DNA of 64,000 bases from Myxococcota bacterium (GCA_039028615.1 JBCCHT010000033.1:1-64000); one strand, 5' to 3'; counted from the first letter of the stretch, positions 38,387 to 51,105 are shown. Notes: generated by a model from the sequence alone, not told the origin. Translations and numbers: made by a program.

Positions 38387-39340
38387 TCACGAGTCATGGC
38401 GACGACGGCGACGCCGAACGAGAAACCAGAGCATCACCGTCCACGCTCCCCGCCGCGGTCGCTCACCGAGATGGCAGCCCGGCGCTTCGTCGGCATCCAT
38501 ATCCAGGTCGAGGCAGTCCCCGCGGTGGCATCCCAGCGGCAATAGCCGGGTCCCCGTGAGGGTCTGAACCCAAGGCAAGGCGTAGTACGCGACGCCGTAC
38601 CAGCCTCCCCGCCCGCATGGCTTGGGGCCCCGCGAGGTCACCCCCGCGAGCCGGTAGGCGCCGCGGCCGAGCGGCACGATGGCCGCCCCCCCCGAGTCTC
38701 CGCGACACGTGTCACGCTGCCGCCCCCCGGCGTAGAACTCGGTGCCATGGTCGGAGAACTCCGTCATGGTGGTGGTGACCTTGCGCTTGAGCGGAGTGCT
38801 CGCGTGCTCGAGGAAAGGGTCGTCGTTGCCGTAGCCCGCCAGCAGGACCACGTTGCCCGCGTGCATCGTCTCGTCCCACTCGCGTGGATCGGTCAGTACC
38901 CGTAGATAGCCCCCCGCCGGCTCGTAGTCTCGAGGAAGCACCACGTAGGCAAAGTCGTAGGCATCCTCTTCGCACGGCTCGCAGAACTGCGGGTGAAGCC
39001 CGAAGCTCTGCGCGAGCATCGAGTCGGTCGTCCCCCTCGGCCCGAAGCCGACGGTAATCCCCGCGTGAGCGCTGTCGTCGTCGAGGCAGTGCGCCGCCGT
39101 GAGCACGAGGCGGGGAGCGATGAGCGTGCCCGAGCAGTGGCCCGCGCGCGTCTTCAGCAGGACCACCGCGTCGAGTTCATCCTCTTCCGCGGAGACTCCT
39201 CCCACGATCGCGGAGGTCCCGGGCGGGGCGGTGAAGCCCTCCGCTGCGGAGCCCGGCCTCGGCACGAGCACCAGCCACAGCCCGATGAAGATGACCCCCC
39301 AACGCGCCGAGACCGAGACGAAGGCATGACACCACGGCAC
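38387..39340 (-). CDS. Trypsin-like (S1) serine protease with degenerate MYXO-CTERM-like tail
   Basis: CSGTLI..VLTAAHC, YDFA, DTCRGDSGG; C-terminal PGC..hydrophobic..RRRRRR. Confidence 0.9.
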   Translation of the reverse strand: MPWCHAFVSVSARWGVIFIGLWLVLVPRPGSAAEGFTAPPGTSAIVGGVSAEEDELDAVVLLKTRAGHCSGTLIAPRLVLTAAHCLDDDSAHAGITVGFGPRGTTDSMLAQSFGLHPQFCEPCEEDAYDFAYVVLPRDYEPAGGYLRVLTDPREWDETMHAGNVVLLAGYGNDDPFLEHASTPLKRKVTTTMTEFSDHGTEFYAGGRQRDTCRGDSGGAAIVPLGRGAYRLAGVTSRGPKPCGRGGWYGVAYYALPWVQTLTGTRLLPLGCHRGDCLDLDMDADEAPGCHLGERPRRGAWTVMLWFLVRRRRRRHDS

Positions 39341-39370
39341 ATCTTCAGTGTGTGCGACCGACGAAGGGCG

Positions 39371-39423
39371 ACCAGTCGGTCAGACGACGGATTCGCGATG
39401 GAGCGCGTCGGCAGGATGACCGA
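39371..39423 (-). promoter_or_regulatory. Dual-box promoter element, copy B (drives the trypsin gene)
   Basis: TCGGTCATCCTGCCGA-N16-TCCGTCGTCTGACCGA-CTGGT, then 18 nt, CACACT, 6 nt, GTG. Confidence 0.8.
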
Positions 39424-39437
39424 CGGCGCCGCGGACA

Positions 39438-39491
39438 TCGGTCGTTGGACCGACCCGTTTTCATCAAAAACCCGCAATCCGACCGACTGGT
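39438..39491 (+). promoter_or_regulatory. Dual-box promoter element, copy A (drives the SMB-repeat operon)
   Basis: TCGGTCGTTGGACCGA-N17-CCCGCAATCCGACCGA-CTGGT, then 18 nt, AATACT, 7 nt, ATG. Confidence 0.8.
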
Positions 39492-39522
39492 GCGGCCTTC
39501 CCCATCTCGAATACTGCCAGTC

Positions 39523-47996: not shown

Positions 47997-48086
47997 CACC
48001 ATCGTCGGTCGGTCGTCGGCCGATTCAACCACGGCCGACGCCGAGTGACGACGCATCGTCGTCACTCGTGTCGACCTGTGAATCCG

Positions 48087-50831
48087 TCACCGAGGCGTCG
48101 AAGACGAGACCTGCAGCTCGTGCCCGAGCAACGACGGGGCTTCGACCTCGACCTCGACCTCGACCCGAAGTGGTTGCCGCGCCTGCGACAGCTCTTCCTG
48201 GCTCGACGCGTGCACACCAAAGTGCGGATGCGAGGGAGGATGGATGGCCTCGAGAAGCGCCACACCTTCGTCCAGAACTCGCTGCGCACTCGCGAGCTGG
48301 CCGACCGCCGTGAACGAACGCGCTTGATCGAATCGAATGAGGGCCAGCGAGTCGTGGGCGGGGCCCGGTTCGGACTCCAGCACCCCCAGCGCATCGGCGT
48401 AGCGCTCGAGAGCTTCGTCGTGCTTACCCTGGGCCGCCAGCGTGCTCGCCTCGGCCGCGAGGGTCCGCCCGTACTCGCGATTGTGCTCGCCGAGCTTCGC
48501 CACGAAGATCTCGGACGCCCGCCGCTGAAGGGCCAGCGCCGAGTCGAACTCACCCCGTTCGGCGACGGCCTCGCTCAGGCCCCGTGAGGCACGCGCGACC
48601 ATGAGGTGATGGGGACCGAAGGCCGTCTCGTAGACGCGAAGGGCCTGCTCGTAGCTGTGCACCGCAGCGGTGGGTCGTCCGGACTCGTGGAGCAGGTACC
48701 CCAGGTTCATGAGGGTATGGGCATGATCGGGATGTTCGGGTCCGAGCGCCGATCGAGTGATGCGTACGGCTCGACGTTGTGTCCAAACCGCCCGCTCGGG
48801 ACGACCTCGCTCGGCCTGGTTGAGCGCGAGGTTCTCGATCAACACGGTCACCTCGGGGTGCTCGGGCCCGAGAAGCTCCCGCTTGGCCGCGTAGGCTCGC
48901 TCGTAGAGCTGTCGCGCCCGCTCGTACTCGGCGTGGGCGGAGTGGACCACGCCGAGATGAGCATCGAGTCGCGCCCGCGAGAGAGGATCGGGCGGCAAGC
49001 GATCCAACGAGGCCTCGGCGTGCCGAGCCCAGCGCAGCGCCTCGGAACGCCCAAACGAGGCGTCGGAGCACAAGTACACGAGTTTCGTGGCCGCGATCGC
49101 GGCGGTCTGGTGGTCGCCCACGCTCGAGGCCAGCAGCGCCGCCTCGGTGAAGTGTTCGCGGGCACTGGCCGGCTTGCCGAGGTCTTGATCGAACCTCCCG
49201 AGTCGCTCGTGGGCCTGGGCGACGGTGCGCGGGTGACCCAGGGCTCGGGCCTCGTCGAGCGCCACCACGGTCGTCGCTCGCCCCTCCACCACGCGCCCGG
49301 CCAGCCGCATCGCATTCGCCGACTCGAGGGACGCCACGATCTGCTCGACGGCGGCTCGGGTCGCGGCATCGGCCGGAGGAAGGCTGGCCGCTCGCAGGGC
49401 GGGCAGGTCTTCGCAATGGTGCAGCGAGATCAGGTTGTTCACCGGGTGGTCGGCGTTTCGCACCGTCGTCGAGTTCGCGTTCACCAGCAGGTCGACGGTC
49501 AGCTCCATCGACGTCAGCGCGTGCCCCAGGCAGCTCACCCGTAGATCGGAGCCTTCCTCCGAGCCAGCCTGGGCCTCACACGCGCTCGTGCGGTGCTCGA
49601 CCCAATGGTCGGCGTAGGCATCGAGGCGCCGCACCACCCGTCGAGCGGCATCGTCCGCGTAGCCGAGCTCGGTCGCCTCGAAGGACCGGCGCAGCTGGTG
49701 ACGGGCGTGTGCATTCCAGACCTGGGAGATCTGCTGTTGGCCGTCCCCGCACGAGACCGGCGGGTTCGGGCCGACCGCGGCCCAGCCCGCGCAGCCCAGG
49801 AGCACGCCAGCGGCCGCGACGGCCACACGGCGGCGGCGGCCGGGTCCCCGCCGTCGAAGCTCGGCCAGTTCCTTGCAGACCTCGTTCATGTCGGCGAATC
49901 GATGCTCTGGCCGAGGATCGAGGCAACGCACCAACAACGCCCGAAGCCGACGACACAGGCTCAGGCGGCCCCCGTCGAAGTCGATCTTCGCGGCGAGTTT
50001 CTCCTTCGCCAGCTTCGAAAAATCGGATGCTCGGAAGGGGCGCCGCCCCATGAGCGCCTCGAACAGCGCGATCCCGAAGGAATACTGATCGGACGCCGCC
50101 TCGACGCCAGTGTTGAGGTGCTGCTCGGGTGCCATATAGCTCGGCGTGCCCATGACCACGCCACGCCCGGTGACCGCGGAAAGAAACAACGCCACATCGG
50201 GCGGGTTGGGCTCCGAATCACCGGGCAGGCTACAGACCCGGGCGAGGCCGAAGTCCATGACCTTCACCCGCCCTCGCTCGTCGATCATGACGTTGGCCGG
50301 CTTGAAGTCTCGATGCACGAAGCCGGCGGCATGGACTGCGGCCAGGCCCGCCCCCGCTTGCTCGAAGACTTCGAGGACCCGCTCGAGACCGGGCGCCCCG
50401 CCGAGCCAGCCCAGCAGCGTCTGGCCCTCGATGTGGGCCATCGTCAGGAAGACACGGTCCTCGTGCAGGCCCAGGTCGTAGACCGAAACGACATTGGGAT
50501 GAGACAGGCACGCCAGGGCGATCGCTTCGTGTCGGAGGCGTCGGCGAGCCTCGCAGGCATCGTCGCGATGACGGAGTTCGTGGAGCACCTTGACCGCGAC
50601 CGCGCGATCGAGCTTCGGATCGCGGGCGAGCCACACCACGCCCATACCTCCGGCCCCGAGTCTCGCGACGAGTTCATAGCGACCCACCCGATTGCCCGGC
50701 ACGAGGCTCGCCTCGTCGAGGGTCGGCGGTCGATCGAGGGTCAGCGTGGGCTCCGAACCATCGACGAGCTTCACCGTGCTGGACACCTGGCCCCGCTGCC
50801 CCAACTCCAACGCATTCACACGCTCAAGCAT
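48087..50831 (-). CDS. Ser/Thr protein kinase - TM - TPR receptor
   Basis: GAGGMG, VAVK, HRDFKPAN, DFG, GTPSYMAPE; TPR repeats. Confidence 0.93.
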   Translation of the reverse strand: MLERVNALELGQRGQVSSTVKLVDGSEPTLTLDRPPTLDEASLVPGNRVGRYELVARLGAGGMGVVWLARDPKLDRAVAVKVLHELRHRDDACEARRRLRHEAIALACLSHPNVVSVYDLGLHEDRVFLTMAHIEGQTLLGWLGGAPGLERVLEVFEQAGAGLAAVHAAGFVHRDFKPANVMIDERGRVKVMDFGLARVCSLPGDSEPNPPDVALFLSAVTGRGVVMGTPSYMAPEQHLNTGVEAASDQYSFGIALFEALMGRRPFRASDFSKLAKEKLAAKIDFDGGRLSLCRRLRALLVRCLDPRPEHRFADMNEVCKELAELRRRGPGRRRRVAVAAAGVLLGCAGWAAVGPNPPVSCGDGQQQISQVWNAHARHQLRRSFEATELGYADDAARRVVRRLDAYADHWVEHRTSACEAQAGSEEGSDLRVSCLGHALTSMELTVDLLVNANSTTVRNADHPVNNLISLHHCEDLPALRAASLPPADAATRAAVEQIVASLESANAMRLAGRVVEGRATTVVALDEARALGHPRTVAQAHERLGRFDQDLGKPASAREHFTEAALLASSVGDHQTAAIAATKLVYLCSDASFGRSEALRWARHAEASLDRLPPDPLSRARLDAHLGVVHSAHAEYERARQLYERAYAAKRELLGPEHPEVTVLIENLALNQAERGRPERAVWTQRRAVRITRSALGPEHPDHAHTLMNLGYLLHESGRPTAAVHSYEQALRVYETAFGPHHLMVARASRGLSEAVAERGEFDSALALQRRASEIFVAKLGEHNREYGRTLAAEASTLAAQGKHDEALERYADALGVLESEPGPAHDSLALIRFDQARSFTAVGQLASAQRVLDEGVALLEAIHPPSHPHFGVHASSQEELSQARQPLRVEVEVEVEAPSLLGHELQVSSSTPR

Positions 50832-50926
50832 GCTGCCTTCACGCGCGCTCGCAAGTGCCAGTTGCCTACGAATCGGTGACCCTCGCCACGCCAGTGGTGG
50901 ACTCCTGTACGGCCGCGGAGGGGGTG

Positions 50927-50979
50927 TCGGTCATCCGACCGACTCTGCCACCGAAGAATCCGCCATCCGTCCGACTGGT
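50927..50979 (+). promoter_or_regulatory. Dual-box promoter element, copy E
   Basis: TCGGTCATCCGACCGA-N16-TCCGCCATCCGTCCGA-CTGGT, then 19 nt, AATACT. Confidence 0.75.
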
Positions 50980-51105
50980 CGATGCCATCGCCGCCTCCAA
51001 TACTGATCTGCACGCGATGGAACACGACCCCCACGACCCCGAACCGGCGCTCCACTGTTCATGCTGCACCCCCTCGGGCGCCAGCCGTCGCAGTCGTGCT
51101 ATGGC

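Follow-up and report, generated by a model that had tools for sequence, protein, structure and literature searches.

Six copies of a dual-box element lie in a 64,000-nucleotide stretch of the genome of a Myxococcota bacterium (GCA_039028615.1, JBCCHT010000033.1:1-64000; hereafter the window), and we find it fairly probable that they are the tandem operators of an FHA-LuxR regulator encoded between them on the same genomic island, a regulator that would be switched by phosphorylation through an adjacent receptor kinase and would activate genes that mostly encode exported proteins. The conservation of the elements and their position ahead of genes support their identification as promoter-linked protein-binding sites. 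The window is C33:1-64000 in a genome of 12.27 Mb and 94 contigs (G000), which we searched with k-mer and position weight matrix (PWM) scripts.

The six elements reported in an initial annotation of the window are all present, at 39371..39423 (minus strand, copy 1), 39438..39491 (plus, copy 2), 45129..45181 (minus, copy 3), 45236..45288 (plus, copy 4), 47943..47996 (minus, copy 5) and 50927..50979 (plus, copy 6). Each consists, as described there, of two 16-bp boxes whose starts are 32-33 bp apart, and five copies continue with CTGGT (CAGCG in copy 3) and, 18-19 nt past it, the hexamers CACACT, AATACT, TAGTCT, TACACT and AATACT. The box had been written TCGGTCR-nn-YGACCGA; the palindrome is real, but it is better written as a 6-4-6 arrangement (TCGGTC-N4-GACCGA), because the inner R and Y are kept in only 14/22 and 12/22 of the curated sites introduced below. 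Pairwise identity among the six copies is 0.90 and 0.82 in the box arms and falls to chance level elsewhere, with 0.27 in the spacer, 0.25 in the stretch before the -10 hexamer and 0.26-0.33 in the flanks, although 4/6 copies have an A-rich stretch ahead of the proximal box. Conservation of the box arms alone, with spacer and flanks at chance, is the pattern of a protein-binding site and not of a copied repeat.

The element is rare in the genome. With a PWM derived from all six, the copies reach 48.0-54.7 bits and the best site outside the block 25.3 bits; when each copy is scored by a matrix from which it was left out, the copies score 35.8-48.2 bits, versus 23.1-28.0 for the best other sites. 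The initial annotation had placed the element in this block only, which holds except for a seventh full copy, with 35-bp spacing, that a broader model located at C17:213068 beside a paralogous FHA-LuxR gene. Single boxes occur in the window at the rate expected by chance (32 matches with at most three mismatches versus 28.3 expected), and a strict CTGG pattern searched among 41 genomes matched nowhere but in the window. Separately, we noted a degenerate candidate copy at C1:313081 (21 bits) with an A-run and CTGGT, on a contig that carries no FHA-LuxR gene.

The geometry of the elements relative to gene starts was analysed in 22 curated sites, the six in the window and 16 others. The distal box is near-invariant in these sites and the proximal box is degenerate. 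A hexamer of the form xAxxxT is found 22-24 nt past the proximal box in 21/22 sites in the forward orientation versus 1/22 in the reverse, and in 15/22 sites, window copies 1, 2 and 5 included, an in-frame ATG or GTG follows the best hexamer by 6-7 nt. Thus in copy 1 the hexamer (39352-39347) is 6 nt from the GTG of the trypsin gene (39340), in copy 2 (39510-39515) it is 7 nt from the ATG of the first lipoprotein gene (39523), and in copy 5 (47924-47919) it is 6 nt from the ATG at 47912; the distance in copy 4 (45307-45312, ATG 45322) is 9 nt. Such spacing makes it likely that these promoters produce leaderless mRNAs, a feature that the initial annotation had missed. Its -10 assignment stands for the five copies concerned. 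Copy 3 has two strong boxes ahead of the ATG at 45087 but lacks a -10-like hexamer where the other copies have it.

If transcription starts 7 nt past the hexamer, the proximal box is centred near -43.5, as had been proposed, and abuts a non-consensus -35 region, and the distal box is centred near -76. Class II geometry is established for LuxR-type activators, and by analogy the arrangement seen here is of the class II activator type. We found no consensus sigma-70 promoter (-35/-10) in the block, and this absence, together with the non-consensus -35, fits dependence on an activator; on these features of the promoters we consider it likely that the regulator activates. The spacings between boxes, 32-35 and 44 bp, correspond to about three and four helical turns. 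The 32-33-bp spacing was seen only in G000 and G002, both of which have a window-type paralog, while other sites have 34-35 bp and that of G079 has 44 bp; from these two genomes we would propose, as a hypothesis only, that spacing is tied to the type of paralog.

The regulator (40795..41382, minus; 195 aa) combines an N-terminal TKT tail (T5/T7), a Pfam FHA domain at residues 42-104 with the pocket residues G44, R45, S59, R60, H62, N81 and G82, and a GerE helix-turn-helix (HTH) domain at residues 135-188 (PF00196, 60.9 bits; cut-off 23.5) with the recognition helix SRRTVATHLE. Among the island genes scanned, it is the sole DNA-binding protein by Pfam. It has an FHA domain in place of a receiver domain and the island kinases are of the Hanks type, hence this is not a NarL/FixJ two-component system; similarly, Pfam detects neither BTAD nor Trans_reg_C, which places the protein outside the EmbR/SARP group. 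The window genome encodes five FHA-LuxR proteins, of which two have the helix RRTVATHLE, the window protein and the C17 paralog (C17:210915-211499, TRRTVATHLE). A full promoter model finds six sites above 30 bits, of which five are window copies and the sixth is 1.6 kb away from the C17 paralog; all six were in its training set.

The co-occurrence of this helix with the boxes makes the FHA-LuxR protein, very probably, the cognate factor. Among 73 genomes of the Nannocystaceae, the family to which the window is assigned, the strict pattern of box pair and -10 hexamer occurs in eight, and codons for RRTVATHLE occur in nine, namely the same eight and G082, which has a relaxed site. A search with wider spacing added G079, G083 and G075; G079 has the helix KRTVATHLE and a box pair 44 bp apart, followed by 23 nt, TACGAT, 6 nt and an ATG. 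In total, 10/10 genomes with [RK]RTVATHLE have an element, compared to box pairs in 2/63 of the others. By locus, the motif is near 11/15 regulators with [RK]RT[VI]ATHLE (12 if the 44-bp site is counted) versus 1/16 with other helices; of the three regulators with no motif nearby, one belongs to a truncated locus and the other two are those of G002. A de novo palindrome count likewise recovered TCGGTC-N4 in seven of nine RRT loci and gave no consistent palindrome for nine loci of the SPATVGRHLS type, and G004, G081 and G084, which have a regulator of that type, have no box pair. G087 also has, on C4, an FHA-LuxR protein with the variant helix ERRTVASHLD and no site nearby.

In a tree of 73 of the 116 homolog rows, the window-type clade (10 rows) has support of 100/100 and the C17-type clade (34 rows) 100/97. 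Outside the island, the usual cluster contains the regulator, a short kinase, a TPR protein, a beta-helix lipoprotein, DUF1592 and DUF1552. The FHA-LuxR protein is a likely cognate factor because the motif accompanies the helix in two separate clades, each with its own gene context, and the recurrence of the same helix with the same boxes (six times) in separate, well-supported clades with unrelated gene sets is a stronger argument than the counts. Across the phylum, the helix pattern occurs in 2/401 genomes, both Nannocystaceae. A motif scan of wider genome contigs (80 of 81 stretches) returned mainly one Microcoleus site, chance matches and TetR-linked sites, with an FHA-LuxR gene at 6/80 stretches, all of them Nannocystaceae-type loci. 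Relaxed helix matches in G046, G041, G017 and G081 were rejected as they are not LuxR proteins, and a relaxed-helix stretch in G006 matched neither HTH nor FHA.

Several observations weigh against this reading. The patterns were shaped by six of the genomes (G087, G088 and G082 were not among these), and 11/16 of the non-window sites are DUF1592 promoters, mostly of one inherited locus, so that the counts are not independent. When a model was built from six outside sites, copies 1, 3, 5 and 6 ranked among its nine best rows and copy 4 19th, but copy 2 was absent from the best 60 of 73 rows. The closest ortholog of the regulator (G002:C119, 65%) has no site within 37 kb, and the five sites of G002 are dispersed over five contigs other than those with its same-helix regulators. 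G083 has a box pair (C93, 5766-5819 of stretch L283) with neither regulator cluster nor -10; this pair sits at a spot syntenic with the regulator-DUF1592 cluster of G079 and is likely a deletion relic. In G075 (C788, L284:4647-4693), two perfect boxes spaced 31 bp apart end 7 nt ahead of the start of a lipoprotein gene, and no RRTVATHLE-type regulator was found in that genome. Within the window, copies 3 and 6 do not follow the leaderless-effector pattern. Finally, the window genome has 406 kinase open reading frames (ORFs). As an observation apart, G002 has 23 perfect single boxes, versus 0-11 in other family genomes, which hints at a larger dispersed regulon there.

Kinase linkage is supported as a trait of the FHA-LuxR family by the gene neighbourhoods. 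With distances taken from stop-to-stop ORF extents, the regulator has a kinase ORF no more than 300 bp away at 21/31 loci, compared to 4% of random non-kinase positions in the window genome; by helix, the adjacency holds for 14/15 loci of the RRT type and 7/16 with other helices. The initial annotation had noted two Ser/Thr kinase-TPR proteins in the block, and Pfam agrees. The first (41431..44247, minus), with a weak transmembrane segment near residue 351 (Kyte-Doolittle score 1.45), ends 48 bp ahead of the regulator start, and the two genes likely form one operon. It carries the catalytic motifs HRDFKPGN and DFG, of which HRD and DFG are invariant across seven kinases. We give roughly even odds to this kinase being the regulator's partner. 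The second kinase (48087..50831, minus; kinase, transmembrane segment, TPR) is tied to the regulator solely by its place in the island and, given the number of kinase ORFs in the genome, is at most a candidate member of the system. That number, together with the same-helix paralog and its site on C17, also argues against the annotation's description of the system as self-contained. A third kinase-TPR gene is found beyond the island (56217-59060, plus) and has no box pair.

The phospho-binding residues of the regulator's FHA domain (G-R, S-x-x-H, N-G) are present in 114-116 of 116 homologs. An N-terminal TxT, here T5 and T7, occurs in 53/54 RRT-type tails versus 5/61 in a linker control; 7/61 RRT-type proteins lack a tail of at least eight residues and were left out of the tail count. 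This conserved tail, which the initial annotation did not mention, resembles a phospho-acceptor, and the nearest solved FHA sequences include GarA, OdhI and a GGDEF-FHA protein. TxT in the N-terminal tails of kinases was considered as well and dropped, with no clear enrichment (30 versus 21.7 of 321).

In the mechanism that we propose, a signal at the TPR ectodomain would activate the 41431-44247 kinase. The FHA domain of the regulator would dock on the autophosphorylated kinase and T5/T7 would be phosphorylated, two steps that we consider reasonably probable. The phosphorylated tail might then bind the FHA domain of a partner molecule, as proposed for DgcB, to form HTH dimers or a dimer of dimers. 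The strong distal box and the weaker proximal box, on the same helical face, would together recruit RNA polymerase with the housekeeping sigma factor in class II fashion. Weak promoters, several of which likely give leaderless mRNAs, would thereby be switched on, and the output would be a set of exported proteins that includes one candidate pore-forming toxin.

The alternative that survives best, although we judge it unlikely, is that the same-helix paralog on C17, or both paralogs, mainly binds the island boxes in trans, which would make the island a satellite of a DUF1592/DUF1552 regulon older than itself and not a self-contained unit. The helix and the nearby copy of that paralog favor this possibility, as do the G002 sites located away from both same-helix regulators. 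However, all six island copies have the 32-33-bp spacing and five have CTGGT, both genomes in which this spacing was seen have a window-type paralog, and the island has an intact regulator of its own.

A second possibility, which we consider improbable, is that the FHA-LuxR protein is a repressor, or that phosphorylation turns it off through closure of the tail on the FHA domain, as in GarA and OdhI. Repression would suit a proximal box that abuts the -35 position and the G075 locus, where the same palindrome overlaps a start, and GarA and OdhI are the nearest solved FHA structures. The non-consensus -35 and the absence of a consensus promoter fit activation instead, and the distance from box to -10 is fixed at 22-24 nt.

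Still less probable is that an unrelated factor, for example of the TetR family, binds the palindrome and that the link to FHA-LuxR reflects inherited synteny. Records from actinomycetes and alphaproteobacteria contain tandem TCGGTCGNNCGACCGA sites beside mddA and a TetR gene, which is a further point against the FHA-LuxR assignment, and perfect single boxes are present in 69/73 family genomes, with G075 as an exception to the association with the helix. But that TetR protein was not found in the 73 family genomes (with this query, and with no positive-control genome), the FHA-LuxR protein is the only DNA-binding candidate that Pfam finds in the scanned island genes, and the motif goes with the helix in both clades and both gene contexts. 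The TetR loci are of interest in their own right: at L084, L100, L136, L138, L151, L156 and L160 (~10000), a TetR protein with the helix PLSQIHYHFG is accompanied by an alpha/beta hydrolase and usually by mddA (methanethiol S-methyltransferase), and the tandem TCGGTCGNNCGACCGA sites are likely its auto-operator.

That the element is a repetitive extragenic palindrome (REP), a miniature inverted-repeat transposable element (MITE) or an RNA hairpin is very improbable: each box can fold into a 6-bp hairpin and three boxes are among weak terminator-like matches, but the spacers and flanks lack the whole-length conservation of a repeat, the elements gave no match in Rfam, they occupy just two neighbourhoods in the genome, which answers the concern over a scattered repeat raised in the initial annotation, and they are strictly oriented to -10 hexamers and starts, in a position 5' of the predicted start of transcription.

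The tandem-operator reading places the regulon on an inserted island, whose status as such the initial annotation had missed. The distance between clpA (35877-38318) and the DTW-domain gene (51106..51717, plus; PF03942) is ~0.1 kb in congener G004 and ~1.2 kb in G003, congener G005 has a different 12-kb cargo between the two genes, and in G001 and G002 they are on separate contigs. Homology to congeners in blastn ends at ~38,265 and restarts at ~51,136. Thus, the proximity of clpA and DTW in G004 and G003 and the other cargo in G005 identify the region of ~38.3-51.1 kb as an insertion of 12.7 kb (block ~38319..51090, with approximate edges). We found no direct or inverted repeats of at least 8 nt between the island ends. 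The clpA-DTW junction and the downstream side of DTW hold different cargo in each congener, as in an insertion hotspot (window 38318-51136).

The elements precede exported-protein genes, as the initial annotation had stated of effector units, with the exception of copy 6, which is at the right edge of the island (-10 at 50999-51004) and faces the DTW gene, a core gene in 5/5 congeners that is not part of the island; its nearest ATG (51017) opens a 128-codon frame that overlaps the DTW gene out of frame. Copy 1 precedes a trypsin-family protease gene (38387..39340, minus; PF00089) that encodes a signal peptide and a hydrophobic, Arg-rich C-terminus, which we take to resemble MYXO-CTERM, although NCBIfam gave no match. 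Copy 2 precedes two overlapping somatomedin-B lipoprotein genes (39523-40173 and 40170-40784, plus; PF01033) with lipobox-like N-termini. Copy 3 precedes a gene for an exported or membrane protein with no known family and two paralogs in the genome (44362..45087, minus), copy 4 a gene for a lipoprotein with a predicted helical bundle like domain I of Cry toxins (45322..46671, plus), followed by a terminator-like 17-bp hairpin (46688-46725), and copy 5 a gene for a Cys-rich Myxococcota lipoprotein (46950..47912, minus) for which structural searches gave weak lipocalin-like leads with scores below the bar.

The Cry-like lipoprotein had been named as such in the initial annotation, and structure prediction agrees with a Cry domain-I fold. 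The protein has nine remote homologs. A model from their alignment has a predicted local distance difference test (pLDDT) score of 62, with 70-90 in the core and below 50 in the C-terminal 90 residues; the pLDDT of a single-sequence model is only 37. Foldseek matched the alignment-based model to IPD113 (E 9e-5), and VIA-align matched it to Cry4Ba (Z 14.0, root-mean-square deviation 3.4 over 180 residues) and also to Cry7Ca1, latrotoxin, Cry8Ea1 and PirB, with Cry-family chains dominating the top rows; designed helical bundles follow closely (Z up to 10.8), so that Z 14 is barely above the common helical-bundle level. Pfam gave no match at E up to 1, the Endotoxin families included, and a word-index homolog search with this protein found itself alone. 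Sub-cutoff B-lectin or beta-trefoil matches occur in 3/9 homologs, in the variable C-terminal domain, and a score of 0.82 to Endotoxin_N in the ESM Atlas amounts to no more than a lead. On the predicted fold, a pore-forming role is plausible.

Outside the window, the targets are mainly DUF1592 lipoproteins, and in G002 also an alpha/beta hydrolase and lipoproteins of no known family. The conserved target in most relatives is thus the DUF1592-DUF1552 pair, which has no known function, and the initial annotation's predation or competition kit is an overstatement; 'exported proteins' is the better general description. A role of the output in predation or defence seems doubtful to us.

Other observations concern the remaining FHA-LuxR paralogs and the wider genome. 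A k-mer scan for private motifs of the other four FHA-LuxR paralogs found none; a k-mer signal on C17 was rejected as such a motif because it turned out to be an inverted duplication. This duplication (G000:C17:201659-202889) has 300-bp inverted arms, 94% identical, around short direct repeats, and similar inverted pairs (75-80%) on C1, C2, C7, C14 and C91 may represent a MITE or another repeat family. A second clade of FHA-LuxR proteins (the SPATVGRHLS group, P0024-P0111) differs in its helix and has a tail in which T-x-[ED]-Y is conserved; no operator was found for it in the palindrome scan. At G000:C65:25221, a single perfect box is followed directly by TTGACA upstream of a DUF1592 gene.

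The proposed circuit resembles several known systems. The lux box, NarL and DosR systems have activators of the GerE/LuxR type and inverted-repeat boxes near -42, and FHA-bearing sigma-54 activators in Myxococcus are a related published case. The island regulator would share with NarL, GerE and LuxR the PF00196 HTH, the 16-bp inverted repeat, the proximal box near -43.5 and tandem phased sites, but differs in having no receiver or autoinducer domain, in a new box tied to one helix and in its frequent, likely leaderless starts. The predicted domain-I bundle of the 45322-46671 protein similarly recalls Cry4Ba, IPD113, PirB and latrotoxin, from which the protein differs in its 5-16% identity, lack of a Pfam match, lipoprotein signal and variable C-terminal domain. 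In the literature that we searched, which covered few subscription papers, we found no operator, regulon or mechanism for an FHA-LuxR protein.

PknH of Mycobacterium tuberculosis phosphorylates EmbR in an FHA-dependent manner, which raises DNA binding (PMC4601284, PMC6213207). The pairing of a receptor Hanks kinase with an FHA transcription factor appears to be shared here, where it is seen as genomic coupling with intact catalytic motifs. EmbR is a SARP with an OmpR-type winged HTH, a BTA domain and a C-terminal FHA domain, whereas the protein described here has a minimal tail-FHA-GerE/LuxR architecture and a palindromic tandem operator. In DgcB of Bdellovibrio (tail-FHA-GGDEF), the N-terminal residue T14, once phosphorylated, activates the dimer by binding to the FHA domain, chiefly in trans (PMC6733907), and PknG uses its own phosphorylated tail to recruit OdhI and GarA (PMC8546545). 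The conserved N-terminal Thr tail before the FHA domain is common to DgcB, GarA/OdhI and the regulator, in which conservation suggests its phosphorylation; the output is a cyclase or enzyme inhibitor in those cases and a predicted DNA-binding HTH here. FHA+LuxR proteins with this same two-domain architecture have been catalogued in Nocardia and Rhodococcus, with no operator, kinase partner or mechanism given in the available part of that catalogue (PMC3466318).

Taken as a regulon prediction, the locus provides a well-supported case, at the level of sequence, for signalling from a kinase to an FHA transcription factor, in which the operator is defined and the part played by the phosphorylated tail is put as a specific hypothesis. 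A broader proposal, which we put forward tentatively, is that in Nannocystaceae a three-part phospho-relay takes the place of a two-component system, with a receptor kinase, a tail-oligomerised FHA-LuxR protein and a phased tandem operator ahead of leaderless genes. In such a relay, spacing (32-33 versus 34-35 bp) might insulate same-helix paralogs, the circuit might move as an island, and contact or damage might control a surface protease together with a Cry-like lipoprotein that forms pores. The island contributes a small bacterial lipoprotein family for which a Cry domain-I fold is predicted, and the locus points to leaderless transcription in Myxococcota. To our knowledge, how the hundreds of Ser/Thr kinases of large myxobacteria reach gene expression is mostly unknown; this locus gives one testable candidate route, specified down to the kinase, the regulator, its two threonines, the 16-bp operator with its position and the target genes.

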